Source of the DNA: Candidatus Levyibacteriota bacterium
GTDB lineage: Bacteria > Patescibacteriota > Microgenomatia > Levybacterales > UBA12049
NCBI GenBank assembly: GCA_016186645.1
Contig: JACPLF010000006.1
Coordinates: 46,312-110,311 of the forward strand
DNA length: 64,000 bases
Direction: 5' to 3'
The notes beneath the pieces are model-generated. The model saw only the letters and a program-made list of their open reading frames with translations, was not told the DNA's origin and ran no database searches. This document shows, piece after piece, positions 1 through 64,000 of the stretch (within the stretch, counting starts at the first letter, position 1; every line of letters starts with the position of its first letter). The position numbers and the translations under genes were made by a program.

Positions 1-428
1 ATTTAGATAATCCCTGGAATAAAGACGTAGTGATTATAAGGGAGAAAATTAAATCAAACAAAAAAATTATTTGCCTGGGTTTTGTTTCCAACGAGGAGCT
101 CGTAGCCTTATACAATGCTGCGACTGTTTTTGCTATGCCATCCCTGTACGAAGGATTTGGCTTGCCAATACTTGAGGCTATGAGCTGTGGCTGTCCTGTT
201 GTGACATCCAAAGAAGGTTCAATTCCTGAAATCACTGGCGAGGCCACCCTGAGCGTAGACGCTTATCACGTTGGGAGCATTGCAAAGGGAATTAAAGACG
301 TATTTGATGACAAAGACTTGCAAGCTACACTGTCTGAAGAAGGAATAGAACAGTCAAAGAAGTTCAGCTGGGAAAAGACAGCCATAGAGACAATGTCCGT
401 ATACAGAAAAGTCACCCGCAAGCCTTAG
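1..428 (+). CDS. Glycosyltransferase family 1 (GT4-like), C-terminal part; 5' end lies outside the window
   Basis: Frame is open from nt 3. The EGFGLPILEAMSCGCPVVTS motif is typical of the GT4 C-terminal Rossmann domain. Confidence 0.8.
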   Translation, partial: LDNPWNKDVVIIREKIKSNKKIICLGFVSNEELVALYNAATVFAMPSLYEGFGLPILEAMSCGCPVVTSKEGSIPEITGEATLSVDAYHVGSIAKGIKDVFDDKDLQATLSEEGIEQSKKFSWEKTAIETMSVYRKVTRKP

Positions 429-468
429 ATTCTTTGCAAATGCAGGCCTTTTTTAATAGAATAATAGT

Positions 469-1041
469 ATGGATTTTATTACGCTTAGCAATCTTAGTAG
501 CACAAAATTAATCAAGGACACTTTGGTTCATCCTCTCAAAATCAACAGAGACGCATCAGGAATTCTGGTTGAGACGTTGAGAAAAGATTGGAAGAATATT
601 TATGGTCCAGGCCGTGAATTTGCAATGCAATATTACTCTGTAACAGATAGCGGTGTAGCTCGGGATGAAGATGTTTGGCATTATCATCCGACAGTCCAAG
701 AAGACAGATTCTTGGTGGTTCAAGGTGAGATTATTGTGGCCGTAGCAGATAAAAGGGAGGGTTCAAGTACGAATGGATTATTAAATCTTTTTTATATGCA
801 GGCAGATAAAGATCCTTATATATTGTTAGTTCCTAAAAAGACATTGCATACTTTTATGGTAGTTTCCAAAAAACCGGCAATAATACTTAACTATGCAACC
901 AAGCTTTATAATCCGGCCGAAGAGGGAAGAATACCTTTCGAAGAAGCAGGAGTAAAACTTGCGGATGAGGAATTATTTACATGGGAAAAAGCCAGAAGGG
1001 AATTTCCTAAATTCTACTCTTCTATAAATGCGCAACATTAA
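469..1041 (+). CDS. RmlC-like cupin, dTDP-4-dehydrorhamnose 3,5-epimerase family
   Basis: 190 aa. RGFxETLRxD-like start, a WHYH cupin His motif and a C-terminal YNPxxEGxIPF block, with spacing that fits RmlC. Confidence 0.55.
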   Translation: MDFITLSNLSSTKLIKDTLVHPLKINRDASGILVETLRKDWKNIYGPGREFAMQYYSVTDSGVARDEDVWHYHPTVQEDRFLVVQGEIIVAVADKREGSSTNGLLNLFYMQADKDPYILLVPKKTLHTFMVVSKKPAIILNYATKLYNPAEEGRIPFEEAGVKLADEELFTWEKARREFPKFYSSINAQH

Positions 1042-1768
1042 TTTTCTATCTGTTGTTATTCCTGCTTACAAGCAAGAAAAAACAATCTTAAAAGACATAA
1101 GAGATCTTGATGAGTCACTTAAAAGCCTGCCTTATAAGTATGAAATTATCGTAGTTGTGGATGGTTTTATAGACACAACTTTTGGAAAAGCAAAGCAAAT
1201 AGATAAAGAGCATATAAAAGTTTTCGGTTATGAGAAAAACGAAGGCAAAGGTCATGCGGTGAAGTATGGCATGCTGAAGGCAAAAGGTGACGTAATAGGT
1301 TTTGTAGATGCCGGAATGGACTTAAGCCCAACTGGAATTTCTATCCTTTTGGATTCTATGATGTGGCAGGATGCAGATATCATAGTAGGCAGCAAACTCC
1401 ATCCGGATTCAAGAGTAGATTATCCTTATTTTCGTAGAATTCTTTCCTGGGGTTACAGAACATTAACCCATTTATTATTTGGATTCAGCGTTCGCGATAC
1501 GCAGGTCGGGATGAAATTTTTTAAAAGAGAACTAGTTGAAAAAGTTTTCCCAAAACTGTTGGTTAAGGCTTTTGCTTTTGACGTTGAGATTTTGGCAGTT
1601 GCAAATTCGATGGGTTATAAAAAGATAATTGAGGGACCAGTTGAGCTCAATTTCAAAGGAGGAAGCAGTATAACATCGGGAAATTTTTGGATTATTGTAC
1701 TTCTTATGCTTTGGGATACAATGGCAGTTTTTTACAGACTAAAAATTCTTAACTATTATAAAAAATGA
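1028..1768 (+). CDS. Glycosyltransferase family 2
   Basis: N-terminal VVIPAYKQE...EIIVVVDG and a DAG (DxD-like) motif, GT-A fold signature. Confidence 0.85.
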   Translation: MRNINFLSVVIPAYKQEKTILKDIRDLDESLKSLPYKYEIIVVVDGFIDTTFGKAKQIDKEHIKVFGYEKNEGKGHAVKYGMLKAKGDVIGFVDAGMDLSPTGISILLDSMMWQDADIIVGSKLHPDSRVDYPYFRRILSWGYRTLTHLLFGFSVRDTQVGMKFFKRELVEKVFPKLLVKAFAFDVEILAVANSMGYKKIIEGPVELNFKGGSSITSGNFWIIVLLMLWDTMAVFYRLKILNYYKK

Positions 1769-3045
1769 AAAAAATAATTAAGTCTGCGATGAATCATCCG
1801 TTAGTTACCGGAAGCACAATTATTTTTTTTGGCTCAATGACAGCCAATATACTCAATTATCTCTTTAATTTAGGAATGGGAAGATTTCTCCTAGAGTCAG
1901 AGTATGGGACATTTATATCTTTAATATCAGTATTCAATATTTTCTCAGTTTTATCTACGACCGTAAACACTGTTTTTACAAAATTTTCAGCAGTATTGGT
2001 CGGCCAGAAAAAAGAGGAATTTATAGGCCAGCTTTTTATATCTGGCAGTTGGTGGATTGGAATAATAGCATTTTGCATTACGGGATTTATAATTATATTT
2101 TCTTATCATATCTCGCGTTTTCTTAATATTAACTCAACAATTTTGATAGACATTACTGCTCTTGCTCTTTTTTTCTCCTATTTATCTTTTGTTGGCAATG
2201 GAATTCTTCAGGGTCTTCTTAAATTCGGATATTACTCATTTATAAATATATTTTCTTCTTTGTCAAAGCTTATTTTGGGTCTTGGCTTTATTTTTTTAGG
2301 GTTTAAAGTTTTCGGAGCAATTAGTGCATTTTTCCTGTCTGCTTTGATTGGATATCTGTTGGTCTTTTTCCCCTTACGAAAATTTTTAAAAAATAGCGGA
2401 AAAAAAGATTTTCATTTCTCTAATTTACGGAAAAAACTTTCCCTATATGCACTTCCGGTTTTTTTAGCCAATATTGGGATGACGGCATTCATAACAATAG
2501 ATATTATTTTGGTAAAGCATTTTTTTGAACCAACGACAGCAGGACAATATGCGGCAATATCCACCATGGGCAGATCTATATTTTACGCAGTATCTCCGAT
2601 CGCCTTAGTCCTTTTTCCTTTAGTGGCACAGAGAAAAGAAAGAGGAGAAAATTTAACCGGAATTACGCTTTTGTCTTTATTTTTAATAGGAGTTCCATCT
2701 TTGTTTTTAAGCTTGTTTTATTTTACGTTCCCGGAATTTGTACGTACAATCTTTTATCCTTCTTTTAGCCAAATAATAAATCAATATCTGGGGCCATTCT
2801 CTCTATTTGTCTTATTCTATACACTCTCGTATGTCTTAAATATCTTTTATCTTTCCATTGGCAAAATAAGAGTATACATAATTACAATTTTGGCAGCATG
2901 CGCTGAGACTGCTTTGATATGGTTTTTGCACGATAGTGTTAGTCAGGTAATAAATATTCTAATTTTAAGTTCCTTTTTGTTGTTTTTATCATTGCTATTT
3001 TACTATCCGATCGCAACCAAAAAAACAAGACCTAATTCTATATGA
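1765..3045 (+). CDS. Polysaccharide or oligosaccharide flippase-like polytopic membrane protein (Wzx/MOP superfamily-like)
   Basis: 426 aa, about 12-14 hydrophobic segments, ATGA overlap with the upstream GT2. Confidence 0.6.
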   Translation: MKKIIKSAMNHPLVTGSTIIFFGSMTANILNYLFNLGMGRFLLESEYGTFISLISVFNIFSVLSTTVNTVFTKFSAVLVGQKKEEFIGQLFISGSWWIGIIAFCITGFIIIFSYHISRFLNINSTILIDITALALFFSYLSFVGNGILQGLLKFGYYSFINIFSSLSKLILGLGFIFLGFKVFGAISAFFLSALIGYLLVFFPLRKFLKNSGKKDFHFSNLRKKLSLYALPVFLANIGMTAFITIDIILVKHFFEPTTAGQYAAISTMGRSIFYAVSPIALVLFPLVAQRKERGENLTGITLLSLFLIGVPSLFLSLFYFTFPEFVRTIFYPSFSQIINQYLGPFSLFVLFYTLSYVLNIFYLSIGKIRVYIITILAACAETALIWFLHDSVSQVINILILSSFLLFLSLLFYYPIATKKTRPNSI

Positions 3046-4142
3046 ATATCCTTATTTTTAACTGGAGAGATATAAAACATCCTTTGGCTGGAGGAGCCGA
3101 GATCTCTCTTTTTGAACACGCAAAATATTGGGAGAAGAAAGGGGCAAGCGTCACGTGGTTTGCATCCTCATTTCCTAAAGGGAAAGAAAGAGAAGATGTG
3201 GAAGGAATAAAAATTATAAGAAAGGGTTCTCATTATTCTGTTCACTTTCTTGCATTTTTAAATTATCTGCAAGGTCGTCTGGGCAATCCCAGTATTGTTA
3301 TTGACAGTTTCCATTTTTTACCTTTTTTCACACCTCTTTATATCAAAAAAGCAAAAATAGTAGGACTAATAAACGAAGTTGCAGGAAGAGTTTGGTTCTC
3401 AAATATTATTTTTCCTTTGTCTTTGATTGGTTATTTAATTGAGTCATTATTTTTTGCTTTTTACAAAAATACAAAATTTATTACGAGCTCTGATTCAACA
3501 AGAGATGAGCTTATAAAGTTCGGAATCCTCAAAGAATTTGTAAACATAGTTCATCACGGTGTAACTGTAAAAAAAATAAAAAAAGATATTGTTAAGGAAA
3601 AAAATCCAACGATAATTTTCTTAGGACGTATATCAGAGGACAAGGGTATAAAAGATGCTCTTATGGCTTTCAGTGAATTGAAAGGTAAAATTAAAAACTG
3701 TAAGTTGTGGATTGCGGGTAGAGAAGAAAATGAGGGATATCTGGAAGGATTGATAAAAGGTGTTGGGCTTAACAAATTTAGATCTGAAATTATATATTTT
3801 GATTATGTTTCGGAGGAGAAAAAGTTCGAACTCTTGAAGAAGGCTTGGGTGTTGATTCATCCATCAAGAAAAGAAGGATGGGGCCTTAACGTTATCGAAG
3901 CTGCATCCCAAGGGACGCCTACTGTAGGTTATAACACAGAGGGCCTGAGAGACTCCATTGTAGATGACAAGACTGGTCTTTTGTCCGATCCCAATCCTAA
4001 ATCTTTGGCAGATAAAGCCTTTAAGCTTATTTCAGATAAGAGACTTTACTATAAGTTAGAATTGGGAGCAGAAGAATGGGCCAATAAGTTTAATTGGGAA
4101 GAAAGTAATAGGCAGAGTTGGGAAGTTATAAAAAATATATGA
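3042..4142 (+). CDS. Glycosyltransferase family 1 (GT4)
   Basis: EGWGLNVIEAASQGTPTVG...GLRD motif of the GT4 C-terminal domain. Confidence 0.85.
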   Translation: MNILIFNWRDIKHPLAGGAEISLFEHAKYWEKKGASVTWFASSFPKGKEREDVEGIKIIRKGSHYSVHFLAFLNYLQGRLGNPSIVIDSFHFLPFFTPLYIKKAKIVGLINEVAGRVWFSNIIFPLSLIGYLIESLFFAFYKNTKFITSSDSTRDELIKFGILKEFVNIVHHGVTVKKIKKDIVKEKNPTIIFLGRISEDKGIKDALMAFSELKGKIKNCKLWIAGREENEGYLEGLIKGVGLNKFRSEIIYFDYVSEEKKFELLKKAWVLIHPSRKEGWGLNVIEAASQGTPTVGYNTEGLRDSIVDDKTGLLSDPNPKSLADKAFKLISDKRLYYKLELGAEEWANKFNWEESNRQSWEVIKNI

Positions 4143-6127
4143 AAAACATTAAAAACTTTTTTAAATCTTACTGGATCGGGATTTTAATTGCTTTAACATT
4201 CTTTTTTGTGGGATTGAGCACTCTTTCTCATTACGGAATAAATATTGATGAGCCTATTCATTTTGAAAGAGGGAATGCTTATCTGGACCTTTTCCTAACA
4301 GGAAGAACAAAATATACGAATGCTGATTTTCAAAGCCCCAGAGTAAGTGAATGGAAATATAAGGGTTATGATGCAGATTATTTTATAAAAAATGACAGCG
4401 GTCATCCTCCGCTTAGCGGCATTTTAGCAGCCGCAACCAACAGAATTCTTTATGAGAAGTTAGGAGTAATGGATGACTTGGAAGCTTATCATGCATTTGA
4501 ATTATTCATTTCAGCTCTTCTTGTTTTTCTTGTTTTTGCCATGATTAAAAGAAGATATGGCACATTCGCAGGGACTATAGCATGCTTATCGATGGCTCTT
4601 TATCCTTTGTTTTATGGAGAGTCTCACTATAATATTAAGGATCCAATTGAGGCTTCATTTTTTGCTTTTACTCTTTATTTTTTATATCTTGGCGTAGAGA
4701 ATCTTAAAGCAAAATATTTTTTTATTTCAAGTTTTTTTTGTGCCCTAGCTTTTGGAACGAAATTCAATATAATCTTTCTGCCTTTCATAATCATTCCGTA
4801 TCTTTTTGTACGCTTTGGTTTTTCTTTAAATTTTAAAAAGATACCTAAAGGTGTTTATGTAAGCTTATTTTTGTATACAATTATTGTTTTAGTTATTCAT
4901 TTTCTCTCCAGACCCTTTCTGTGGCAGGATCCAATAAACCGTTTCCTATATATAATTGCGTATTATAAAAACATCGGAACAGGGACAAATTTTGAACCAA
5001 TGTTTCTCAAATATGGATGGAACACCTATCCAACATTTTTCGTTGGAATATCTACCCCCCTTGTTATCCTTATTTTATTTATTATTGGCGTATTAGTTGT
5101 CTTATTCAGGATAAAGAAAGAAAAAGATAAGTTCTCTTTCCTTCTACTTTTGTGGTTTGGAGTTACCATTCTTAGGGTTTCACTTCCTGGTACTTCAATA
5201 TATGGTGGAGTAAGGCAGATTATGGAATATATTCCTGCTATGGCAGGAATTGCTGGGTTGGGAGCCTTATATATTCGCGGTCTATTATTCAAGTTTATAA
5301 ATATCAAATTAGCCTCCATAATAATTTTTGCAGCATTTGTTCCTTTGATGGCAACTCTTGTGAGGTTACACCCAAATGAAAATTTATTTATAAATAGTTT
5401 GGTAGGAGGATTGAAGGGGGCAACTGAAAAAAAAATAATGGGAAACGCTTATCTGCAAGGGATATTGTGGCTGAACGAACATGCGGAACAAGGAGCTCGT
5501 TTTGGATTTCCTGTGGGACTTGGATCTAACTTTCCGCCTCAATTCGTACGCAAAGATATTAAATTTGGCGGCCATTTTTCAGGAATGAAACGAGGCGGAG
5601 AATATATGATAGAAATGTTTTCTGTTGAGTTTCCGATCCACAAGTATTCTTATGATTATTTGGATCGCTTTCTTATTCCAGTACATGTAAAGGCTGTAGA
5701 TGGAGTACCAATACTGAAAATTTGGAAAAACGATATAGCCCACACGAGGACTGGATTTGTAAATGAGATAGAGGAAGGAAGAATTTTAGTTGAAAAATCA
5801 GGAGACGGATTATCTTTCTCTGTAAAGCTCAAGGAGCCAGCATTTGTTACTAGAATTGAGATTAATTATAGCAATGATGATTGTACTCGCGAATTTAATG
5901 GAGATTTTAGTTACTCTTATGACGGAGATAAGGAGTATCTTTCTCCCGATGAATCTCCTTTAAATCAGGGTAGATACGTAATTTCCTTACAGACAGTTAA
6001 TAAGCTTGTTTATTTTTTCCCTGCTGTAAAAGCCAAGTGGGTATACGTTACGCCCCATGATTCAAACTCATGTTTGTTGAATGTTAAAAACGTGAGAATT
6101 TTTTCTTTGAAAGATATTAAGCCTTAA
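4139..6127 (+). CDS. GT-C-type integral membrane glycosyltransferase-like protein (paralog family A) with extracytoplasmic C-terminal beta-rich domain
   Basis: ATG at 4139 overlaps the upstream stop (ATGA); the track ORF starts earlier at a TTG at 4118. About 430 aa polytopic region followed by about 230 aa soluble domain. Paralogous to 7411..9334 and 42113..44191. Confidence 0.75.
   Translation: MKNIKNFFKSYWIGILIALTFFFVGLSTLSHYGINIDEPIHFERGNAYLDLFLTGRTKYTNADFQSPRVSEWKYKGYDADYFIKNDSGHPPLSGILAAATNRILYEKLGVMDDLEAYHAFELFISALLVFLVFAMIKRRYGTFAGTIACLSMALYPLFYGESHYNIKDPIEASFFAFTLYFLYLGVENLKAKYFFISSFFCALAFGTKFNIIFLPFIIIPYLFVRFGFSLNFKKIPKGVYVSLFLYTIIVLVIHFLSRPFLWQDPINRFLYIIAYYKNIGTGTNFEPMFLKYGWNTYPTFFVGISTPLVILILFIIGVLVVLFRIKKEKDKFSFLLLLWFGVTILRVSLPGTSIYGGVRQIMEYIPAMAGIAGLGALYIRGLLFKFINIKLASIIIFAAFVPLMATLVRLHPNENLFINSLVGGLKGATEKKIMGNAYLQGILWLNEHAEQGARFGFPVGLGSNFPPQFVRKDIKFGGHFSGMKRGGEYMIEMFSVEFPIHKYSYDYLDRFLIPVHVKAVDGVPILKIWKNDIAHTRTGFVNEIEEGRILVEKSGDGLSFSVKLKEPAFVTRIEINYSNDDCTREFNGDFSYSYDGDKEYLSPDESPLNQGRYVISLQTVNKLVYFFPAVKAKWVYVTPHDSNSCLLNVKNVRIFSLKDIKP
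5296..5436 (+). repeat. 141-nt tract identical to 8598..8738 in the downstream paralog, ending in an A9 homopolymer
   Basis: By eye the tracts match base for base, whereas flanking paralog sequence is only about 65-75% identical. Confidence 0.85.
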
Positions 6128-50116: not shown

Positions 50117-50125
50117 TCGTCTTTA

Positions 50126-54207: not shown

Positions 54208-54212
54208 AATTG

Positions 54213-54221
54213 TGTTATAAT
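54213..54221 (+). promoter_or_regulatory. Extended -10 promoter-like element TGTTATAAT, second copy of the ATTGTGTTATAAT motif
   Basis: Lies in the divergent intergenic region 54208..54260, about 39 nt upstream of the ATG at 54261. Confidence 0.3.
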
Positions 54222-54260
54222 ATTTTACATTATTCAGAGACCAAATTAAATACTTAGAAT

Positions 54261-55313
54261 ATGTCGAAAAAGATTTTAGTGACAGGGTCTGCGGGACTTA
54301 TCGGATCTGAATCAGTTAAATTTTTCGCCGAAAAAGACTTTGAAATCATCGGAATAGACAACGACATGCGGGCATATTTTTTCGGGAAAGAAGCGAGTAC
54401 TTCCTGGAACAGAAAGTTTTTGGAAACAAAATATAAAAACTACAAGCACTACAACCTAGATATTCGCGATCAAGAAGGCCTTGAGAAAATTTTCAAAGAG
54501 CATAAATTTGATTTAATAATTCACACTGCTGCTCAGCCATCGCATGATTGGGCTTCAAAAGAGCCTCTAACCGATTTTGGAGTAAATGCATTAGGAACTT
54601 TGTATCTTTTGGAAAACTTTAGAAAATATAGCCCTTCATCTGTTTTTATTTTTACATCTACGAATAAAGTATATGGAGATACTCCGAATAGTCTTCCTTT
54701 AATCGAAGAAAAGTTGCGTTATGAGTTGCCCAAAACCCACAAATATTACAAGGGAATAGACGAGTCGATGAGCATTGATAATTCAAAACATAGTATTTTT
54801 GGCGCATCAAAAGTCGCAGCAGATGTTATGGTTCAGGAGTACGGAAAATATTTTGGACTCAAAACAACGGTTTTTAGAGGAGGATGTCTGACAGGTCCTG
54901 CACATTCAGGAACAAAGCTTCACGGATTTTTGGCATATTTGGTTAAATGTATTGCGACGGGTCAGAAATATACGATTTATGGATACAAAGGGAAGCAAGT
55001 TAGGGACAATATTCACTCTTTTGATTTGGTTAATGCTTTTTATCATGTCTACAAAAATCCAAGAATGGGAGAGGCTTACAACATAGGAGGCTCTCGCCAT
55101 TCAAACATATCAATTCTCGAAGCAATCGAAAAGATAGAAAAAATTCTAAAACGTAAAGCTAACTTCGATTATGATAATGAAAATAGATCCGGAGACCATA
55201 TTTGGTACATTTCTGATGTGTCTAAATTCAAATCTCACTATCCTAAGTGGGATTTCAAATACTCAGGCGATATGATTCTTGAAAACATCTGCCGCTTTGG
55301 GCATTTCTCCTAA
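54261..55313 (+). CDS. CDP-paratose 2-epimerase (tyvelose epimerase)-like SDR
   Basis: [27 protein letters not shown]...NISILE blocks align with the RfbE/Tyv family; 350 aa. Confidence 0.65.
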
Positions 55314-55314
55314 T

Positions 55315-56382: not shown

Positions 56383-56383
56383 C

Positions 56384-59300
56384 ATGAAATTACGAAAAAT
56401 AATTTTGACTATACTTTTGTTTTCGTTATCATTTGTTCCGTTTTTATGGTTCCCTAAAGACCAAATTCTAATAGGCTATGACAATGTTTACCCTCTTAAT
56501 GCGGCAGCTTTCCTAAAAGATAGAATATTTTCATGGACTACAACATCTGGGTTTGACATGGATCAGTCCGGTATTCAGGGGAGCTTAGTTATTCACTTTG
56601 TGGATAGCATTCCTCAGTTGTTGGGACTTCCGGTCCAGCTTAGTCAAAAAATCGTGTTCAGCTTTTGGTTCTTTTTACTATTATTCTCTCCCTATTTTTT
56701 TATCACCAGACTTGAAAAGGCTGGTCTAATCAAAAGTTCATATCTTCGATATTTTTTCCCTGTTTTATATGCATTTAATTTCTACATTCTTCAGGCATGG
56801 TGGGTAGCAGAACGAACAAAGTTTTCTCTCGTTGTTGTTATGCCTCTAATTCTTTCGCTTCTTATACCTATGGCCCTGCAGAAGCTTACTTTGAGAAATA
56901 TAATAAAAACCGCACTTACTTGCTCTATATTACTATCCATCTTTAACGGCGGGGGATGGGTTGGTTTCCCTCTTTACGGAGGCTTACTTATTGCGCTTTC
57001 AGTTTATTATTTCTTTTTTCTTGGTTTCTATTTCTTTACAAACCAGAAGAGAAATATTGGGTATCTTACTTTATTTTTTCTTTGCTTTGGATTTTCGTAT
57101 ATTTTGCTTAATGCTTATACTTTGGTTCCATTCTTGCTGACAACTTTACGGGAATACAGCGCTCTTGTGCAAAGCTCGGGAGGAGTCTTGGGGCTTATTG
57201 AGTGGGCAAAATATTTAAGTTCCGACACCAGCATAGCTAACCTTTTGCGTCTGCAGGGAATACCGGATTGGTATAATAGCGGGAAAGATCACCCCTACGC
57301 GTTAATATATTTACAAAATCCTTTTTTTATCATTGCCAGCTTTCTTTTTCCCGCTTTTCTTTTTCTTTCTTTTCTGAGAAAGAAAAAAGAGAATACTCTA
57401 CTTATTTTTTTCTTTCTCATACTCCTTCTTGTCTCCCTTCTTTTTACTCAGGGCGTACATAAGCCGCTGGGCTCCATAATGGAGTTTTTAATGGAGGTTA
57501 TTCCCGGTTTTATTGCATTTCGTTCGGCAATTTTCAAATTCGGATATGCCTACTGGTTTTCTATAAGCTTTCTTATTGGACTTTTTTTGAGCGAAGCAAT
57601 TGAGTTTATTCTAGGGAAGATAAAACAGAGACAAATAAGCTCTCCCCTAAAGGTTCTATTGCCGCTTGTAATTATATTATTGCTTATTTTATATCATTTT
57701 CCCTACCTGACCGGTAATATTTTCCGAATTGAATCAAGGCAAATTGCCTCGCGCGTAACAGTTCCGTCTTATGTGCATGAATTTTCCAAATGGTGGAGGG
57801 AAAATGGGAAAAACGATAAAGTACTGCTGCTTCCGCAGCTAAATAGCAATTGGGGTTTGGAACAATATAGATGGGGATATATGAGCCTTGCTCCAATTTT
57901 GGGAAATTTTGCCAACAAAAATATTATTGAAAATACAGTTGTTCTTTCCTCTGCGGAAACAAGAATATTAAACGATTTCTACTCTGCTGTTAACGAAAAA
58001 AATTATCTAAAAATGGATGCAAATGCAAATGCGCTTAGTATTAAATATTTTTTGGCCCGAAAAGATTTCTATTATGATATTCCGGATCAGGAAACAACAG
58101 ACCCTTTACTTTTGGAGGAAAGGTTATTGGGGAATCCAAAAATTGTTAAAGTTAAATCATTCGGCCAATGGGACTTATATGCGTACACAGAGGAAAAACC
58201 GCTCTTTTTTGCAAGAACGTCAGCTATCCTGGGAATTGGAAATACAGCAAATGAGCACTATACTATTGCAGATAATGCACTCATTCTCGAAGGAGACAGT
58301 TTTATAAAAAACCCTCAGACTTTTTCTCACACATTTATTCAGCCGTCGTGTCTCAACTGCGATATAGAAAAAGAGGATTTGCAGCTGATTGTACCAAAGC
58401 CACGCGTGTTGATTGATTCAAAGTTCTACCAATTCGTAGAATTGCGGGACAGAATTTTCAGCCCAAAGTATAAATCCGTAGATAGCTATGTTGTAAATCT
58501 TCTTGGAGAAACATTAAAACTTAGCGGACAAATAAACGAGCTTGTTTCACAGGGGAGAAATGAAGAATATATTGCTTTTGCAAAAAATAAATTTATTCAC
58601 AATCTGGACCTAGTTGGCCAAGAGCTCCCAAATATTTTTGAAAAATCCGCGAACCCTTATTATACTTTTTTTGTTATCCAGCAGTATTTGGAGGCAGAAG
58701 ACAAATACATTTCAAACATTATTTCTACAAAGATTGATAGCAAAAGCGTATTCTCTGATCTGGAAAAAATACTTCTTTCAATAAGTCAGCTTAATAATGA
58801 AGTTCAGGCATCTTATACAATTGGAAATGCAAGTATTGAAAAAAAATATAGATTCGTAACGGAAGAAAGCGGAAATTACTTTGTCCGTATACGCCGTGAC
58901 ACAATTGGTACGTTGGTAAATAATGATCCGTCAAGTATCATAGTTTCCATTAATGATAAGCCCGTAAAAATAGATCCGAAACTTGATTATAAATATATAA
59001 TATTAGGAGATTTATATTTTGGTCAGGGAGATCAAATATTGACATTAGTTTTTCCTGAGCAGAAAAATCTTTTTACTCCTGGTACGCTGCAAACTATCGC
59101 CGCAAGAAACTGCGTCTCTTCAGTGATTAACAATTTTTCTCCAGCAAAAACATATAGTCTTAGGTTTTTATCCCGAAATAATTTTGATCAAAGCTTTTAT
59201 CTTTTTATCGATAATGCTGAAACATACGCCCCTACATACAGATCTTTTTTTCCGATTTCAAGAGAACACGTGACCAATAATAAGATAACTGTTTCTTCCA

Positions 59301-59764
59301 ATACAATGCATTTAAACAAATATTCAAATAGGCTACGTATCGCTTTTTGTGCAGCAACATTAACTGAAGATTTATTTAAAGAAAATATTTCCGATCTCGC
59401 TCTCATAGAGCTTACAAGTCCGATAGTAACGTTAGTTAAACAAGATAAAAATGTTTTTCAAAACATACCAGAGATAACTTTTGAAGAAGAAAATCAAACT
59501 CACTATAAAGTGCATGTTGAAAAAGCAGATGAACCATTTTACCTTGTTTTTAGCAGGAGATATTCGTCTGGGTGGAAAGCAAACATTGGTGATCATGTCA
59601 TCGGAAATAAATATGCAAATGTTTGGTATGTTGATAAAACCGGAGATATGGATATTGATGTCGTTTATGGTCCGCAAAGATATTTTACGTTTGGCGCAAT
59701 TATATCGCTATTATCAATCACTGCAGTTATAGGAATAATTATAAGATTAAAAAAATATGCGTAA
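56384..59764 (+). CDS. Very large polytopic membrane protein with roughly 650 aa extracytoplasmic domain, putative GT-C glycosyltransferase
   Basis: 1133 aa. N-terminal roughly 450 aa is highly hydrophobic; C-terminal TM anchor (IISLLSITAVIGIII). Start at the ATG just after the upstream stop. Confidence 0.5.
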   Translation: MKLRKIILTILLFSLSFVPFLWFPKDQILIGYDNVYPLNAAAFLKDRIFSWTTTSGFDMDQSGIQGSLVIHFVDSIPQLLGLPVQLSQKIVFSFWFFLLLFSPYFFITRLEKAGLIKSSYLRYFFPVLYAFNFYILQAWWVAERTKFSLVVVMPLILSLLIPMALQKLTLRNIIKTALTCSILLSIFNGGGWVGFPLYGGLLIALSVYYFFFLGFYFFTNQKRNIGYLTLFFLCFGFSYILLNAYTLVPFLLTTLREYSALVQSSGGVLGLIEWAKYLSSDTSIANLLRLQGIPDWYNSGKDHPYALIYLQNPFFIIASFLFPAFLFLSFLRKKKENTLLIFFFLILLLVSLLFTQGVHKPLGSIMEFLMEVIPGFIAFRSAIFKFGYAYWFSISFLIGLFLSEAIEFILGKIKQRQISSPLKVLLPLVIILLLILYHFPYLTGNIFRIESRQIASRVTVPSYVHEFSKWWRENGKNDKVLLLPQLNSNWGLEQYRWGYMSLAPILGNFANKNIIENTVVLSSAETRILNDFYSAVNEKNYLKMDANANALSIKYFLARKDFYYDIPDQETTDPLLLEERLLGNPKIVKVKSFGQWDLYAYTEEKPLFFARTSAILGIGNTANEHYTIADNALILEGDSFIKNPQTFSHTFIQPSCLNCDIEKEDLQLIVPKPRVLIDSKFYQFVELRDRIFSPKYKSVDSYVVNLLGETLKLSGQINELVSQGRNEEYIAFAKNKFIHNLDLVGQELPNIFEKSANPYYTFFVIQQYLEAEDKYISNIISTKIDSKSVFSDLEKILLSISQLNNEVQASYTIGNASIEKKYRFVTEESGNYFVRIRRDTIGTLVNNDPSSIIVSINDKPVKIDPKLDYKYIILGDLYFGQGDQILTLVFPEQKNLFTPGTLQTIAARNCVSSVINNFSPAKTYSLRFLSRNNFDQSFYLFIDNAETYAPTYRSFFPISREHVTNNKITVSSNTMHLNKYSNRLRIAFCAATLTEDLFKENISDLALIELTSPIVTLVKQDKNVFQNIPEITFEEENQTHYKVHVEKADEPFYLVFSRRYSSGWKANIGDHVIGNKYANVWYVDKTGDMDIDVVYGPQRYFTFGAIISLLSITAVIGIIIRLKKYA

Positions 59765-60119
59765 TAACATTAGTAGGCTTATTGAATGGTATCATGTAAA
59801 TCTGGGAAGAGTAGTTTCTCTTTTTCTTCTTATAGTTGTGTTAGCGCTTCTATTTATCTACATTCCCTTTGTCAATATCATACTTTCTCCACAGTTAAGT
59901 ATTGTGATAATTTTGACGTCTTGGGGCATACTGTTTACGCCTTCCGTAAAAACATTGGTCTTATTCGCATTTTTTGTTCTGCTTATGGATATCATCCTAA
60001 CTTTTTTTGGTTTGGATGCGTTTGTTGACCCGCTTGGAAACATTTTTTATTTTCTGCTCATTTTTATATGCGTTAATTATGCAAAGGAAGTTTTTCAGAT
60101 GTACAAAAATAAAGAATGA
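59757..60119 (+). CDS. Small 3-4 TM membrane protein, hypothetical
   Basis: 120 aa; overlaps both neighbours by a few nt (operonic). Confidence 0.45.
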   Translation: MRNNISRLIEWYHVNLGRVVSLFLLIVVLALLFIYIPFVNIILSPQLSIVIILTSWGILFTPSVKTLVLFAFFVLLMDIILTFFGLDAFVDPLGNIFYFLLIFICVNYAKEVFQMYKNKE

Positions 60120-61777
60120 GATATTTTCTTGTAGTTATTATAATTCTCTTTATTTACTTACCATGGTTTCAGTTTTCGAAAACTTTATCAAGCGGAGATT
60201 GGCCATATTTGTTTGTAGAAAATATTCAGGCGTTTAAGATTCCAACAGATCTGCCCTTTCTGTGGCTTGAGCCTTACTATCAGCTGACAGCCAAGCTTGG
60301 AGTTCAGTTTTTTTCTTTGCCTTGGGAAGCAGCAGAGAAGATCTTTTGGTTTTTTCCATTTTTGGTAATTAGCTTGGTATCTTCATATTTTTTCTTAAAA
60401 TACCTAGCCTATAAATTTGAGATTGATGGCAAAGAATCTACGATTTTTATATCGCTAGGAAAAATTATTTTTACAGCAAACACTTATATTCTAATGTTGG
60501 TTGGCGGAGGGCAGATGGGAGTTGCAATCGCTTACTCCATGATCCCTCTTGTTTTCCTATTTTTTTTGAAACTTATTGATTCAAATAGTTCTTCGAGTCT
60601 TAATTCAAAATTCAAAATTCAAAATTCAAAATTATATATTTTTGCAATTTTGGCTTTGGGAACCCAATTAATGTTTGATCCGAGAATATTCTTATTGAGT
60701 GTATTTATCGCAGCTCTATATATTTTATTCAGATATAAAGAATTTAATGTAAAAATTTTAAAAAGAATTCTTGTAGTTTTAGTTCTAACTATTGCAACCA
60801 ACTTGTTTTGGATTTTACCTAATTTTGGTTATTTTAATACAGAATATAAATCTGCAATCGACGCAGCAAACGCAGATTTTCTAAGTTTTGCAACCTTTTC
60901 AAATTCAATTTCTCTTTTACACCCAAATTGGCCGGAAAATATATTTGGAAAAATCGGGTTTATGAAACCAGAGTTTATTTTAATACCTATTATTGCATTT
61001 TCCTCCCTTATCTTAGGCAATTCAACAATGAAACAATTTAACAATCGCATAGTCTTATTTTTCGCCTTTTTAGGAATTTTGGGAGCATTCTTTGCTAAAG
61101 GTACAAATCCTCCATTCGGAGAATTATATGGATGGTTATCGAATTTTCCGGGATTTTCTGTCTTCAGAGATCCAACGAAATTTTACATTTTAATAGCGGT
61201 TTCATATATGGTATTAATACCTTTAAGTTTATATAAACTCAGTGAAAAAGTATCAAGTATTAAGTATCCCCCCTTCGCCAAGGCTTTGGCGGGCAGGCAA
61301 GTATTAAGTATAGTTTTTATGGCATTTTGGTTAATAACAATTCATCCTGCTATGCTGGGAAACTTAACGGGAACTTTCAAGCCGCATGATGTTCCAAAAG
61401 AATATATTAGTCTTAAAAACTTTTTGTATTCTCAGACGGCTTTTACAAAAACACTTTGGGTTCCACAGATTGAAAGATTTGGTTTTAATTCAAGGACTAT
61501 TCCTGCGATATCTTCAATGGAGTTGTTTGGAGTAAGTTCCGTCTCCGAAGTATTGGATAAATTTAATACGTTAGAGACAAAAAAACAATTAATAGATGAA
61601 GAAGTAAAATATATTATTATTCCCTATGACTATCTGAAAGAACTTTTCTTAACAGAAAGAAAATACGATGAAAAGTTATATACGGCAACCATTAATAAAT
61701 TGGGAAAAGTTAACTGGCTTTCTGAGATGGAAAGTAAAAGCTTCGGAAAAATTAAAGTGTTTAAGTTATTAGATTAG
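60116..61777 (+). CDS. Polytopic membrane protein, putative GT-C-type glycosyltransferase; contains an in-frame heptanucleotide repeat
   Basis: 553 aa with more than 10 hydrophobic segments; N-terminal LPWFQF...GDW motif similar to the 50126 and 56384 proteins. Confidence 0.5.
   Translation: MRYFLVVIIILFIYLPWFQFSKTLSSGDWPYLFVENIQAFKIPTDLPFLWLEPYYQLTAKLGVQFFSLPWEAAEKIFWFFPFLVISLVSSYFFLKYLAYKFEIDGKESTIFISLGKIIFTANTYILMLVGGGQMGVAIAYSMIPLVFLFFLKLIDSNSSSSLNSKFKIQNSKLYIFAILALGTQLMFDPRIFLLSVFIAALYILFRYKEFNVKILKRILVVLVLTIATNLFWILPNFGYFNTEYKSAIDAANADFLSFATFSNSISLLHPNWPENIFGKIGFMKPEFILIPIIAFSSLILGNSTMKQFNNRIVLFFAFLGILGAFFAKGTNPPFGELYGWLSNFPGFSVFRDPTKFYILIAVSYMVLIPLSLYKLSEKVSSIKYPPFAKALAGRQVLSIVFMAFWLITIHPAMLGNLTGTFKPHDVPKEYISLKNFLYSQTAFTKTLWVPQIERFGFNSRTIPAISSMELFGVSSVSEVLDKFNTLETKKQLIDEEVKYIIIPYDYLKELFLTERKYDEKLYTATINKLGKVNWLSEMESKSFGKIKVFKLLD
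60602..60633 (+). repeat. (AATTCAA)x4.5 tandem heptanucleotide repeat inside a coding region
   Basis: Read directly: aattcaa aattcaa aattcaa aattcaa aatt; encodes NSKFKIQNSK. Confidence 0.9.
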
Positions 61778-62377
61778 TTATTTCTCCCCTAAGACAAGTA
61801 TCCAAGGGAAAGGAAGTTTTACTGTTTTTACCTTTACCTCATTTTTTTTAAGAAAATTTAAAAAAGATGCAATTGCCCAATGATTTATATGTCCAGGATC
61901 ATTTCCAAGCCGTGACAAATTCTTTCCTCTCATGAAATTACCCAGCATAAAGAAAGGTTCATTAGGGATAGAGATCAAAACGTGTTTTTTTGACGTTCTT
62001 AATACTTCGCTAAGTACTTTTGCGGGACGTTCCAAATGTTCCAGTACCTCAGTGCAAACAACAAGATCAAAAGAATTATCTTTATAGGGTAGCTGATAAG
62101 CGCTTCCCTCTTTGAATGTTAAGTTTGGAAAGAGTTCTCTTCCAAGAGCTATTGCTTCCTTTGAATGCTCAACCCCCTCTATTTTTTTACCTACTCCAAA
62201 TTTAGCTAACTTATCCATGGTAAATCCTTCCCCACAGCCAGCGTCAAGAATTGTTTGTGGCGATAAAGGTTTTGCCAAGGCAATTAGCGATGAGTAAAAG
62301 TTACTGATTAACAATCTTTGTAAGGGGTTTTTGCTAGTATGTTTGACGAAATTAGTAGGTAGAGAAGTTTTTGTCAT
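61778..62377 (-). CDS. Class I SAM-dependent methyltransferase
   Basis: ILDAGCGEGF motif I; VVCTEVLEHLERP. Confidence 0.8.
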   Translation of the reverse strand: MTKTSLPTNFVKHTSKNPLQRLLISNFYSSLIALAKPLSPQTILDAGCGEGFTMDKLAKFGVGKKIEGVEHSKEAIALGRELFPNLTFKEGSAYQLPYKDNSFDLVVCTEVLEHLERPAKVLSEVLRTSKKHVLISIPNEPFFMLGNFMRGKNLSRLGNDPGHINHWAIASFLNFLKKNEVKVKTVKLPFPWILVLGEK

Positions 62378-62418
62378 TTAATGGGTTTTGTGTAATAATT
62401 CATTATAGATAAAACATA

Positions 62419-62634
62419 ATGAAGATACAAGATATAGCTTTTTTTGTGGTTTTGGCCTTATTGATTTTTAAACGTAATCCCAAGCTTGCAGTATTTTGCG
62501 GAATTCTGTGTCTTTTCTTGTCAATTCCTCTTTTTTCTTTCTGGATTTTCTTCACAGCAGAACGACTTACATGGTATGCCGCAGCATTTTTTTTCCTAGC
62601 GATTATTTTTTATTTGTTTAAATTCAAAAAATGA
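62419..62634 (+). CDS. Small membrane protein, hypothetical
   Basis: 71 aa, two or three hydrophobic helices; ATGA overlap with the downstream EamA gene. Confidence 0.4.
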   Translation: MKIQDIAFFVVLALLIFKRNPKLAVFCGILCLFLSIPLFSFWIFFTAERLTWYAAAFFFLAIIFYLFKFKK

Positions 62635-63500
62635 GCGATAAACAAAAAGCCCTCGTTTTTATCTTATTAGCGTCTGTCTTAGGAGGAGCGACACAAGCCG
62701 TTATAAAGATTGGTCTTGTGAGTATTCCTCCTTTGGCTTTTGCTTTTATTCGCTTTTTAATTGCAGGAGTTATTATTTCCCCTTTTCTTTTGAAAACTAA
62801 TTTTTTTAAGGATTTAAAACAACTTATACCCTTTTCCCTATTAGGGACGATCAACATTGTATTTTTCATCTTAGGAATTAAAACAACAACTGCAACAATT
62901 GGTACATTGCTATATGCAGGAGTTCCCCTTTTAACAGCCATATTCCTTTTTATTTTGTTTGGAGATCGATTGAATCAAAGAAAAAAAATCGGCATAGCAC
63001 TTGGATTTTTGGGAGTAGTGCTTGTGGCCTTGCTTCCAGTTCTTGAAAAAGAAGTAAAATTTTCCGGTGATCTTTTAGGAAACATGCTTATTAGTATGGG
63101 TGTTGTTTCTTGGTCTTTGTATATGGCGTATTCAAAAAAGAAGCTACAATCTTTTTCTCCGTTCGTTGTTACCTCAGCTTTTATATGGGTAACTTGCATA
63201 GGACTATTTCCATTATTTCTGATTGAGTTAACCTTTTATCCTAATTGGTGGCAGAAACTAACATTTTCCGGCGCTTTGTCTTTGAGTTATATAAGTATTA
63301 TTTCAACTATTATAGTTTATCTGTTAAATCAGTACGCAATAAAGCATGGGGGATCTATTTTGGCTTCCATGCAATTTTATCTTCTTCCAATTTTTGCGTA
63401 CTTATCAGCTTTTTTTCTTTTGGGAGAGCAACTAACAACAGGACTTATTATTGGTGGAATATTAGCGCTTTTGGGAGTTTATATTACAACTAAGAAATGA
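62631..63500 (+). CDS. EamA/DMT-superfamily transporter
   Basis: 289 aa, 10 predicted TMs, duplicated EamA-like halves. Confidence 0.8.
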   Translation: MSDKQKALVFILLASVLGGATQAVIKIGLVSIPPLAFAFIRFLIAGVIISPFLLKTNFFKDLKQLIPFSLLGTINIVFFILGIKTTTATIGTLLYAGVPLLTAIFLFILFGDRLNQRKKIGIALGFLGVVLVALLPVLEKEVKFSGDLLGNMLISMGVVSWSLYMAYSKKKLQSFSPFVVTSAFIWVTCIGLFPLFLIELTFYPNWWQKLTFSGALSLSYISIISTIIVYLLNQYAIKHGGSILASMQFYLLPIFAYLSAFFLLGEQLTTGLIIGGILALLGVYITTKK

Positions 63501-64000
63501 AAATAAAAATAAATTTTTCTAATAAGTTAATTAAGACTTTAATTTTTTCCTTCCTTCTTTTGCCTTTTTTTATATTACTTTTCAAGATTTCTTACCAGAG
63601 ATTTGCGATGTTTGGATGTTTTGATGAGTGCTTTAATTACCTCGCCGGCTATTTCATGTTTGATGGAAAAATATTATATAAAGATATTTTTTTTCACCAT
63701 CAAATGTTAATGCCATACCTAAGTTACGTAATACATCTTATCTCTCATCCGGATTCCATCTATCAATTAGTTCTTTATCATCGCATGTTCATATTCGTCT
63801 TTGCTTTTTTAATGGATTTGTTTATTATCTATCGTTTTGGTAAGCCAGGAGTTGGTTTTGTTCTTTTATTTGAAGCCACAAAATTTTATTTTATGGGAAG
63901 TCTTTTTCTTCCGGAATCTCTAGTCGTATATTTGCAGGTATATTTACTTGGATTGTGTTGGGTAAAATTGACCGGAAAAAACCTATCTTCCTTTGATTAT
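63497..64000 (+). CDS. Polytopic membrane glycosyltransferase-like protein (family B), 3' end outside the window
   Basis: ATGA overlap with the EamA stop; open to the window end. ILYKDIFFHHQ... aligns with LILFKDIIYHHTQ of the 30554 protein. Confidence 0.55.
   Translation, partial: MKIKINFSNKLIKTLIFSFLLLPFFILLFKISYQRFAMFGCFDECFNYLAGYFMFDGKILYKDIFFHHQMLMPYLSYVIHLISHPDSIYQLVLYHRMFIFVFAFLMDLFIIYRFGKPGVGFVLLFEATKFYFMGSLFLPESLVVYLQVYLLGLCWVKLTGKNLSSFDY

Follow-up and report, generated by a model that had tools for sequence, protein, structure and literature searches.

The 64,000-nt stretch analysed here (hereafter the window) comes from a metagenome-assembled genome (MAG) of Candidatus Levybacteria, within the Candidate Phyla Radiation (CPR; Microgenomates), and is in our view likely to lie within a conserved super-locus for cell-envelope glycans in this genome, which would carry out lipid-linked extracytoplasmic glycosylation. 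This interpretation is built upon four kinds of observation, namely, the families and folds of the encoded components, the pairing of their genes, a natural gene fusion, and the conservation of the locus. The window contains 58 complete open reading frames (ORFs) and one ORF that runs off its right end, is approximately 98% coding, and, according to Pfam and NCBIfam scans of the 58 ORFs, encodes only glycan-related proteins or membrane proteins without an assigned role. A first-pass annotation of this DNA had described nearly every ORF as glycan-related, with no housekeeping gene within the stretch, and both the scans and the layout of the ORFs agree with this description. Neither tRNA nor tmRNA genes were found in the 64 kb, and an Rfam scan of the window returned zero matches.

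Candidate GT-C glycosyltransferases of the window

Central to this interpretation are the large membrane proteins with features of the glycosyltransferase C (GT-C) fold, of which eleven had been proposed previously, and eleven were indeed recovered. Apart from the Wzx, MBOAT and EamA proteins described below, ten of these polytopic proteins are complete, with lengths of 443-1133 aa and 7-11 transmembrane (TM) helices by hydropathy, namely, g06 (4118-6127; plus strand, here and below, unless otherwise stated), g08 (7411-8742), g18 (17403-19658), g27 (27324-28991, minus strand), g30 (30497-31957), g31 (31914-33389), g42 (42113-44191), g50 (50126-53002), g54 (56363-59764, or alternatively starting at 56384, as in the Logan gene call) and g56 (60116-61777). 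The eleventh, g59 (63497-64000), is the N-terminus of a polytopic protein cut by the window end. These proteins form six similarity groups: family A, with g06, g08 (together with its continuation g09) and g42; family B, with g30, g31 and, as a candidate, the partial g59; family C, with g27 and g50; and g18, g54 and g56, each on its own. The three groups with several members agree with the previous claim of at least three paralog families.

When these proteins were searched with Pfam models, as the first-pass annotation had proposed, six exceeded the cut-offs of GT-C families, namely, g06, g08, g18, g30 and g42 (PMT_2 or PMT) and g54 (GT-C_AftD). First, in family A, g06 (669 aa; PF13231, 49.4 bits) combines the membrane domain with a C-terminal outer domain of about 230 aa, and has the acidic pair DE at residues 44-45, after TM1, whereas g42 (692 aa; PF13231, 30 bits) is 33% identical to g06 over its full length. 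The remaining member, g08 (PF13231, 50.8 bits), is the membrane domain of a g06 duplicate that is ended by a frameshift, and is 76% identical to g06 residues 6-440 (blastp). Its out-of-frame continuation, g09 (8738-9334; ORF 8798-9334), matches g06 residues 470-664, with the frame shift placed by tblastn at 8738 and a deletion of 88 nt relative to g06, both halves being still open. Taken together, g08 and g09 (7411-9334) share 77.5% nucleotide identity with g06 (4118-6127), with a dN/dS of 0.11 for the membrane half, and the interruption could be explained by an inactivation in the very recent past, by a split with function retained or by an error of sequencing. Second, in family B, g30 (PF13231, 34.4 bits; 9 TM helices) is followed by its paralog g31 (blastp E 5.5e-47), whose PMT_2 score of 20.7 bits is under the cut-off of 26.1. 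The fragment g59 has FDE and KDIFFHH motifs like those of g30 (shared motif KDI(I/F)(Y/F)HH), with a weak blastp match to it (E 0.016). Third, g18 (751 aa) is of the PMT/PMT_2 type (PF02366, 52.9 bits with a cut-off of 22.7; PF13231, 46.3 bits), with a C-terminal outer domain of about 340 aa and a DE at residues 41-42, within an HPDEP string at residues 39-43 of loop 1. Fourth, g54 (1133 aa) is AftD-like (PF11847, 45.5 bits with a cut-off of 26, residues 48-602); its outer domain is large, and a further TM helix is found at its C-terminus.

The remaining proteins were approached through their families and predicted structures. At E<=10, Pfam gave nothing for g27, g56 and g59, nor for g09, g15 and g55, and, for the membrane domain of g50, no match either, the only domain recognised in this protein being F5/8-C (CBM32, discoidin), at residues ~700-830. 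Likewise, NCBIfam gave only sub-threshold noise on the ten complete candidates, and searches of PDB sequences returned CBM32 alone with the g50-family profile, nothing with the g56-family profile, and nothing when the whole of g54 or the C-terminal domain of g06 or g18 was the query; the outer domains of g06/g42, g18 and g54 thus have no assignment by sequence. In contrast with the previous claim of several discoidin-like C-terminal domains, only g50 has one by Pfam, and hidden Markov models (HMMs) of its CBM32 domain and of two other g50 outer domains matched no other protein of the window; the claim of several such domains is rejected at the level of sequence. At the structural level, an AlphaFold model of g50 made with 22 homologs (pLDDT 87.5, pTM 0.77) retrieved AftD first in Foldseek (E 1.3e-7), and also EmbB, with its membrane domain matching GT-C structures only. 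The g27 protein (555 aa), with no Pfam match of its own, belongs to a family that hhalign finds to be homologous to g50 up to residue ~580 (probability 99.8%, E 2e-28), such that its FFQQDEW, with a QQDEW after TM1 that is invariant in the g27 family, is placed upon the YFWTDDW of the g50 family; PMT_2 was matched by 12 of 110 g27 homologs. A relationship between the g27 and g56 families was rejected at the profile level (hhalign probability 2.4%).

The case of g56 is the most distinct, since neither this protein nor any of its 120 homologs listed has a Pfam match. Its AlphaFold2 model (pLDDT 84, pTM 0.86) has an STT3/AglB/ArnT-like fold, with STT3A, Stt3, STT3B, AglB (twice) and ArnT (twice) as its top seven Foldseek matches in the PDB (probability 1.0, TMq 0.45-0.50), as opposed to transporter matches with probabilities of 0.3 at most and TMq of about 0.1. 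The small C-terminal globular domain of the model resembles that of AglB-S2 (probability 0.96-1.0), and G27 and D28 are invariant in the family. 

In all eleven candidates, the loop that follows TM1 contains an acidic residue, and these residues are invariant in the three families that were aligned (D46/D47 of g50, D28 of g56 and D33/E34 of g27). Nine of the eleven have a basic N-terminus, which is presumably cytoplasmic, and, from the positive-inside rule together with the N-terminal fusion of a cytoplasmic GT2 described in the following section, the acidic loop is predicted to face outside. These results bear upon the possibility that some or all of the polytopic proteins lacking a Pfam family for their membrane part (g27, g50, g56 and g59) are instead transporters, Wzy-type polymerases, ligases or flippases. 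Such a reading may draw on the lack of Pfam or NCBIfam matches above threshold for g27, g56 and g59, on CBM32 as the sole match of g50, on the lack of a recognisable Wzy or GtrA in the locus, and on g59, which is essentially unassigned. However, we consider it very improbable, given the contrast between the GT-C and transporter matches of g56, the invariant acidic residues after TM1, and the GT2 domains fused to g50 homologs. It is GT-C families or structures that the large membrane proteins match, rather than transporters, such that the first refuting outcome named in the first-pass annotation did not arise.

Predicted polyprenyl-phosphate sugar synthases and their pairing with GT-C genes

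Three synthases of the GtrB/ArnC type, which would supply lipid-linked donors, had been noted before, and these are supported by full-length similarity and by architecture. The proteins g13 (12590-13507, minus strand; ArnC E 4e-53, PgfS E 4e-46), g38 (39109-40059, minus strand; ArnC E 3e-49) and g44 (45424-46356, minus strand; PgfS E 3e-73, ArnC E 5e-50), of 305-316 aa, match ArnC/PgfS models along their full length with E values from 1e-41 to 1e-73, albeit under the equivalog cut-offs, and all three share the GtrB architecture, with two TM helices at the C-terminus.

Beyond these three, four short GT2 proteins of 231-251 aa have as their best NCBIfam matches ArnC, PpgS, AglJ and a haloarchaeal dolichyl-phosphate hexose transferase, and are thus candidate synthases. 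First, g03 (1028-1768; PF00535; ArnC, PgfS and PpgS as best matches) has one C-terminal TM helix at residues 220-238 and lies beside the Wzx gene, in the order g03, Wzx, GT4 and then g06. Second, g17 (16626-17348, minus strand; PpgS E 6e-20, followed by AglJ and ArnC) has no TM helix and is divergent from g18. Third, g28 (28988-29683, minus strand; ArnC E 4e-16, with AglJ and dolichyl-phosphate hexose transferase), also TM-less, overlaps the start of g27. Fourth, g49 (49361-50116; ArnC E 8e-15, dolichyl-phosphate hexose transferase E 9e-9), TM-less as well, ends 10 nt upstream of g50. Three of the four therefore adjoin a GT-C gene (g17|g18, g28->g27 and g49->g50). Among multi-component glycosylation systems, variants are known in which a cytoplasmic GT-A enzyme works with a membrane partner encoded separately, as in GacI/GacJ (PMC8035078). 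The synthases of this locus probably number more than three.

The link between g49 and g50 is independently supported by natural fusions. Two distant homologs of g50, P0013 (1162 aa) and P0014 (1200 aa), have an N-terminal GT2 of the g49 type fused to the GT-C part, the former being 59% and 52% identical, respectively, to the whole of g49, and the latter 44% and 37% identical to g50. This arrangement implies that the N-terminus of the GT-C protein is cytoplasmic.

Conservation of the locus and integrity of the assembly

The proteins g50 and g27 are 100% identical to proteins of the Levybacteria MAG (locus tags HYW62_*). A search of the contigs of GTDB representative genomes with g18 gave no match, from which it follows that the GTDB representatives searched include neither this MAG nor any close relative of it. 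The window could nonetheless be compared with independent assemblies and with more distant relatives. First, four sequencing runs, each assembled separately in Logan, gave contigs that match the window with 100% identity at 1-5325, 10712-23422, 46226-56669 and 60606-63913, which amounts to about 33 kb. Second, in GCA_943354875.1, a different species with proteins ~50-55% identical, the gene order from g34 to g57 is kept. Third, the order from g17 to g31 is kept in a related ENA contig (~50% amino-acid identity). Collinearity with the relative covers most of 16.6–62.4 kb, the sole difference in order being the block g43-g48, which encodes an RfbH-like enzyme, a GtrB-type GT2, a transketolase-like pair, a short-chain dehydrogenase/reductase (SDR) and a methyltransferase. 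In the relative (L009, L011), a block similar to 44207-49349 adjoins the orthologs of g30 and g31 rather than lying between those of g42 and g49; besides an RfbH-like enzyme, a GT2, a transketolase-like pair and SDRs, it includes a nucleotidyltransferase, absent from the window, whose own block adds the methyltransferase g48.

These data speak to the concern that the 64 kb could be a chimeric or mis-binned join of glycan clusters from several organisms. This concern is a legitimate one for a stretch from a MAG, the more so as glycosylation islands are often variable and the block g43-g48 is placed elsewhere in the relative. Yet GC content is even, at 31-37% in every 2-kb bin, the per-run assemblies are identical over four segments, the orders g17-g31 and g34-g57 are reproduced in a different species, and the closest homologs are from Levybacteria or other Microgenomates throughout. 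Based on the even composition, the identical assemblies and the conserved order, the locus is not chimeric, and chimerism, which the first-pass annotation had named as a possible refutation, is excluded for practical purposes.

The locus also extends beyond the window. On a Logan contig (L006, 539-3291), 4.4-1.7 kb to the left of the window, two further polytopic proteins are encoded, namely, an MptA_B_family protein of 377 aa and a PTPS_related protein of 546 aa (Pfam), which are probably also of the GT-C type. These genes, together with the full-length version of the GT4 gene that is cut by the window start (g01, see below), indicate that the locus reaches at least 4 kb further left, for a span of at least 68 kb when the upstream genes are counted.

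A three-gene module and the spread of the g56 family

Between g54 and g56, and overlapping both, lies g55 (59757-60119), which encodes a 120-aa protein of an unnamed family with three TM helices. Members of this family have 107-136 aa and 2-4 predicted TM helices. A P..N motif (mostly PY[LFV]N) is invariant among them and a glycine is conserved. The possibility that g55 is a GtrA protein was rejected, as the family matches neither GtrA nor any other Pfam model. Its genes are almost always found between an AftD-like and a g56-like gene (loci L013-L084), and the order AftD-like gene, small TM protein gene and g56-like gene was observed in about 21 of the 67 loci with enough upstream sequence. 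In about 10 further loci, an ORF for a polytopic protein of 1190-1274 aa is directly 5' of the g56 homolog.

The g56 family itself is large. Its profile retrieved 5,833 clusters at 50% identity, 1,446 of them at E<=1e-30, from 1.84 billion representatives, and relatives were found in 145 GTDB species. Informative titles among the 80 loci listed are mostly from Levybacteria, Gottesmanbacteria, Roizmanbacteria or 'Patescibacteria group'. In 46 loci around g56 homologs, the median density of large polytopic ORFs (400 aa or more, with seven or more TM helices) is 1.6 per 10 kb, compared with 1.7 in the window; GT-C-dense neighbourhoods are thus lineage-wide, and not peculiar to this MAG. Genes of the g56 family are also present in many third-party annotation (TPA) MAG records labelled 'uncultured Gammaproteobacteria bacterium' (L017, L019, L020, L029 and others), titles that look like placeholder taxonomy.

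Comparison with known glycosylation systems

In multi-component transmembrane glycosylation, known for Gram-positive wall polymers and Gram-negative O antigens, a GT-A enzyme loads undecaprenyl phosphate with a sugar, a flippase exports it and a GT-C enzyme transfers it outside (PMC8035078). Adjacent pairs of GT2 and GT-C genes are a hallmark of side-chain decoration by these systems, and PMT_2 is the usual domain of the GT-Cs that decorate teichoic acids and wall polysaccharides (PMC8035078, Table 2). The window resembles GtrA/GtrB/Gtr* of Shigella and Salmonella phages, CsbB/GtcA/YfhO, GacI/J/K/L and the Lactococcus Csd system in the adjacency of synthase and GT-C genes, in the PMT_2 domain, and in polytopic GT-Cs with an acidic outer-loop motif. 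The order g03-Wzx-(GT4)-g06 recalls that of gacI-gacK-gacL, and the closest folds found here, namely, AftD, ArnT, STT3, AglB and PglB, are the same as the diagnostic top PDB matches reported for those systems (PMC8035078). However, the window has at least 11 GT-Cs and up to seven synthases in one locus, where the known systems have one to three scattered pairs; GtrA is absent from the window and several synthases are TM-less; two of the GT-C families lack a Pfam model; and these genes belong to a CPR bacterium whose genome is of ~1 Mb. The dedicated flippase of such systems is of the GtrA type or, in variants, a Wzx, SMR or MATE protein, and their GT-Cs have 8-13 TM helices.

A second comparison is with the GT-Cs of mycobacterial lipomannan and lipoarabinomannan (LM/LAM) and arabinogalactan synthesis (AftA-D, EmbA-C, MptA/B, PimE and Pmt), which likewise have many paralogs, polyprenyl-phosphate sugars and carbohydrate-binding modules. 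The likeness is strengthened by g54, which passes the GT-C_AftD cut-off, and by the MptA_B-family gene just upstream of the window, although identities are very low, at 8-10% in structural alignments, and in the window they lie in a cluster together with genes for Wzx, GT4 and methyltransferase proteins. Of the features of an AftD arabinofuranosyltransferase, g54 has the GT-C_AftD domain, but the decaprenyl-phosphoarabinose pathway (UbiA-type phosphoribosyltransferase, DprE1/E2) is not found within the window, with no Pfam match to UbiA-type phosphoribosyltransferases or DprE1 among the 58 ORFs.

A third system, that of GT136 from Citrobacter youngae, likewise has a GT-C with a C-terminal carbohydrate-binding module, which binds the glycan acceptor, and auxiliary epimerases beside it, comparable here to g52 and g53 before g54 (PMC11127046). 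It differs in having a polyprenyl phosphoribose synthase dependent on phosphoribosyl pyrophosphate and a MATE-family flippase, neither of which is in the window. Lastly, STT3/AglB/PglB and ArnT, of the GT-C_A fold, are the best structural matches of g56, C-terminal domain included. Nevertheless, g56 was rejected as an oligosaccharyltransferase, as it has no WWD or WxDxG string and none is found among the invariant or nearly invariant columns of its family; it also differs from these enzymes in having no match to PDB sequences, and it has no profile kinship with the g27/g50 family.

Proposed pathway and nature of the acceptor

The proposed pathway may be outlined as follows, with its donor lipid, sugars, flippases and acceptors, as well as every enzymatic activity, being predictions. 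First, cytoplasmic SDR, DegT, cupin and methyltransferase enzymes would turn nucleotide sugars into deoxy-, amino- and O-methyl-sugars. Second, GT4 and GT2 enzymes of the Leloir type, with Wzx, would make and export a lipid-linked glycan. Third, in parallel, up to seven GT2s would put single sugars on polyprenyl phosphate, three of them being of the GtrB/ArnC/PgfS type with two TM helices and four of the short, DPM1/GacI/PpgS type. Fourth, these sugars would be flipped and then transferred by the eleven GT-C-fold enzymes at the outer face of the membrane, with several donor synthases wired to a given GT-C (g17|g18, g28->g27 and g49->g50). Fifth, an MBOAT O-acyltransferase and a CE4 deacetylase would further alter the product. 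That donor synthases, candidate flippases (Wzx and EamA) and GT-C transferases are all present, the synthases and GT-Cs in multiple copies, upholds the lipid-linked extracytoplasmic system proposed in the first-pass annotation.

In our judgement, the main acceptor is a glycopolymer of the envelope and not a protein, because g54 is AftD-like and PMT_2 is usual in polymer-decorating GT-Cs; the CBM32 domain of g50, with the AftD-like g54, leans toward a glycan acceptor as well. At the same time, PMT-like enzymes such as g18, which has both the PMT domain and the loop-1 DE motif of protein O-mannosyltransferases, may O-glycosylate proteins, and main-chain polymerisation and protein O-glycosylation may take place side by side with polymer decoration.

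It is unlikely, in our view, that the locus serves mainly protein glycosylation, with PMT-like and STT3/AglB-like GT-Cs modifying S-layer proteins, pilins or other surface proteins by O- or N-glycosylation. Precedents for protein glycosylation exist in actinobacterial Pmt and streptococcal PgfS/PgfM, g18 matches the PMT model PF02366, g44 has its best match in PgfS, which makes the donor for protein O-glycosylation in streptococci, and the g56 model is nearest to the catalytic subunits of oligosaccharyltransferases. In addition, pilin glycosylation is suspected in CPR bacteria (PMC11623550). Against this, g56 lacks the WWDxG motif, most polymer-decorating GT-Cs have PMT_2 too (PMC8035078), a carbohydrate-binding module is borne by g50, g54 is AftD-like, and no candidate acceptor protein was identified.

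A different role of the GT-Cs, as polymerases or branching enzymes that form, outside the membrane, the backbone of a lipoglycan or a heteropolysaccharide of the wall, instead of adding side chains as decoration, we hold to be a possible but doubtful one. Mycobacterial LM/LAM and arabinogalactan are the model for main-chain assembly from polyprenyl-phosphate monosaccharides on the outside, and the 11 GT-Cs of the window with the upstream MptA_B-family and PTPS_related proteins, the AftD-like enzyme, paralog families suggestive of linkage-specific steps, and a window without a Wzy polymerase or initiating transferase would fit such a model. However, the window has neither a UbiA-type phosphoribosyltransferase nor a DprE1/E2-like pair, Wzx and six GT4 proteins point to a conventional cytoplasmic assembly of at least one glycan, and adjacent GT2 and GT-C pairs typify side-chain decoration (PMC8035078).

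Several observations weigh against the interpretation that we favour, that is, of a locus for lipid-linked extracytoplasmic glycosylation of an envelope glycopolymer. The short GT2s could be ordinary Leloir transferases, and PMT-family matches could be equally compatible with protein acceptors. The GT-C gene g08 is frameshifted, and g59, a weakly supported fragment of 168 aa, appears as the least secure of the GT-C candidates. Among the window ORFs there is no Pfam match to a GtrA-type flippase, nor to Wzy_C, O-antigen ligase, Bac_transf or MraY-like families; with the initiating phosphoglycosyltransferase, Wzy or ligase, nucleotidyltransferase and GtrA all missing, the pathway is incomplete as seen in the window. 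Genes for Wzy and for a phosphoglycosyltransferase may lie elsewhere on the 214.8-kb contig. Finally, NCBIfam matches to named enzymes are all under equivalog cut-offs, such that sugar identities are not assignable.

It is tempting to speculate further, with due caution as this is a tentative proposal, that the complex envelope heteroglycan of Levybacteria and related Microgenomates, heavily methylated and acylated, is put together for the most part outside the membrane, by an assembly line of at least 13 GT-Cs fed by polyprenyl-phosphate monosaccharides, in a manner that would be mycobacteria-like yet independently evolved. At least two of the GT-C families involved, g56 and g27/g50, would be without a curated model, and the conserved triad of AftD-like, 3-TM and g56-like proteins would act as one complex.

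Significance for CPR biology

Genomes of CPR bacteria are of about 1 Mb and, to our knowledge, all cultivated members live attached to other cells, while we know of almost nothing on the chemistry of CPR envelopes. If the genome is sized like two Levybacteria chromosomes (0.76 and 1.14 Mb), the locus would take up ~6-9% of it; this size and the conservation in Levybacteria and Gottesmanbacteria make surface glycans appear a major investment, and such glycans could plausibly determine how the cells attach to hosts or evade phages. We found no description in the literature of GT-C-rich glycan loci in Levybacteria or Microgenomates, and a study of Saccharibacteria refers to CPR glycosylation as 'unexplored', with pilin glycosylation suspected (PMC11623550). 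What is new here is that a single conserved locus in a ~1-Mb genome brings together at least 11-13 GT-Cs, along with two GT-C families without curated models, GT2-GT-C cassettes supported by fusion, and the AftD-like/3-TM/g56 triad. The types of components and the kind of enzymology were known already, and current understanding is not overturned. The GT2-GT-C cassettes, one of them backed by natural fusions, the unnamed g56 family and the three-gene module provide experimental handles.

Candidate flippases, acylation and deacetylation

The previous description of a flippase, a CE4 deacetylase and several modules for nucleoside diphosphate (NDP)-sugar modification also held. Wzx, MBOAT, CE4, EamA, a DUF5667 protein and a flavin-dependent (FAD) oxidoreductase are each encoded once. 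Two flippase candidates are present, namely, g04 (1765-3045), of the Wzx type (PF01943 Polysacc_synt, 55.8 bits; 11 TM helices), and g58 (62631-63500), an EamA/DMT membrane transporter (PF00892, 123.6 bits, in two repeats) that is a possible flippase or sugar transporter. The CE4 polysaccharide deacetylase is g36 (37422-38204; PF01522, 53 bits).

As for the proposed pair of an MBOAT and a DltD-like protein, only the former stood. The MBOAT membrane O-acyltransferase is g16 (15115-16614, minus strand; PF03062, 106 bits), which has a DltB-like match (E 2e-43) with 149 bits against a cut-off of 375. Directly downstream of its gene, g15 (14123-15109, minus strand) encodes an N-terminally anchored protein of no family, with a charged low-complexity middle and with GTSH (50-53) and DREH (305-308) strings that recall, by eye only, blocks I and V of SGNH hydrolases; no match in Pfam, NCBIfam or PDB sequences was found for this protein, which is a possible acyl-transfer partner. 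A Dlt D-alanylation system was rejected, as g16 is far under the DltB cut-off, g15 is not DltD, and the window has no AMP-ligase or carrier protein. Hence g16 would be best called a generic MBOAT O-acyltransferase. The next gene, g14 (13504-14133, minus strand), encodes a membrane-anchored DUF5667 protein (PF18915, 43.8 bits; TM helix at 21-39).

Cytoplasmic glycosyltransferases and sugar-tailoring enzymes

By Pfam and NCBIfam, the window has six GT4 and nine GT2 proteins. The GT4 proteins are g01 (1-428), the C-terminal part of a protein of 363 aa when whole on contig L006, cut by the window start (Glycos_transf_1, 86.8 bits), and, with PF00534, g05 (3042-4142; 116 bits), g07 (6117-7361, minus strand; 120 bits), g10 (9343-10560; 159 bits), g24 (24759-25943; 79.5 bits) and g51 (52999-54207, minus strand; 67.5 bits). 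In addition to the synthases described above, the GT2 proteins include g19 (19697-20521; PF00535, 79.2 bits) and g34 (35638-36636, minus strand; PF00535, 77.3 bits).

The sugar-modifying enzymes comprise eight SDR proteins, one RmlC-like cupin and three DegT-family proteins, two of them RfbH-like. The SDR proteins are g20 (20518-21504; PF01370, 129.9 bits), an NDP-sugar epimerase/dehydratase; g22 (22751-23836; PF16363, 206 bits), like NDP-hexose 4,6-dehydratases, with LegB and dTDP-glucose dehydratase matches; g23 (23837-24787), like GDP-fucose synthases (NF047922, E 2e-63, under cut-off); g29 (29680-30528, minus strand), an RmlD-like dTDP-4-dehydrorhamnose reductase (PF04321, 230.7 bits; TIGR01214, 213.5 bits with a cut-off of 224); g37 (38201-39112; PF01370, 209 bits), an NDP-sugar epimerase; g47 (47504-48481, minus strand; PF01370, 171.7 bits), an NDP-sugar dehydratase/epimerase; and the two epimerases/dehydratases g52 (54261-55313; PF01370, 149.4 bits) and g53 (55279-56382; PF01370, 116.5 bits). 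The cupin, g02 (469-1041), is of the NDP-sugar 3,5-epimerase/isomerase family (PF00908, 48.5 bits; TIGR01221, E 4.5e-9, under cut-off). Of the DegT proteins, g21 (21682-22764; PF01041, 349 bits) is a LegC/PseC-like sugar aminotransferase, g12 (11416-12597; PF01041, 203.7 bits) is an RfbH-like enzyme dependent on pyridoxal phosphate (RfbH E 4.8e-63, under cut-off), and g43 (44207-45427) is RfbH-like, of the NDP-hexulose 3-dehydrase type (NF011936, E 3e-107, 359 bits with a cut-off of 423).

Nine methyltransferases had been counted before; eight are class-I S-adenosylmethionine (SAM)-dependent enzymes by Pfam, whereas the ninth, g33 (34685-35653), a NanM-like and probable sugar O-methyltransferase, is borderline, with 43.0 bits for TIGR04371 and a cut-off of 44. 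The eight are g11 (10606-11391; PF13847, 80.6 bits), g25 (25946-26686; PF13649, 50.6 bits), g26 (26687-27319, minus strand; PF08241, 43.9 bits), g35 (36656-37369, minus strand; PF08241, 46.5 bits), g39 (40092-40754; PF13489, 58.6 bits), g41 (41508-42113; PF13489, 75.1 bits), g48 (48375-49349; PF13489, 86.4 bits) and g57 (61778-62377, minus strand; PF08241, 71.8 bits).

The FAD-dependent oxidoreductase g32 (33392-34675; PF01593, 74.8 bits) is encoded directly after the g30/g31 pair, and has a 413-bit match to NCBIfam NF005560 ('hypothetical protein'), which is well over the cut-off of this model. A nucleotide-sugar dehydrogenase-like protein, g40 (40759-41508; PF00984, 37.1 bits; TIGR03026, E 1e-24), has 249 aa compared with the usual ~420, and its ortholog in the relative has 252 aa (L009, 5763-6521); since the length is kept in the relative, g40 is probably a true short form rather than a truncated gene. 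Lastly, a short, split transketolase-like pair is formed by g46 (46872-47501, minus strand; PF00456, 40 bits), the subunit binding thiamine diphosphate, and g45 (46381-46875, minus strand; PF02779, 44.1 bits), the pyrimidine-binding subunit. The transfer of a two-carbon branch is one candidate role, as a possibility, for this pair, which has 209 and 164 aa, compared with 274 and 307 aa in the relative (L011, 1273-3017), and is without a Transketolase_C domain.

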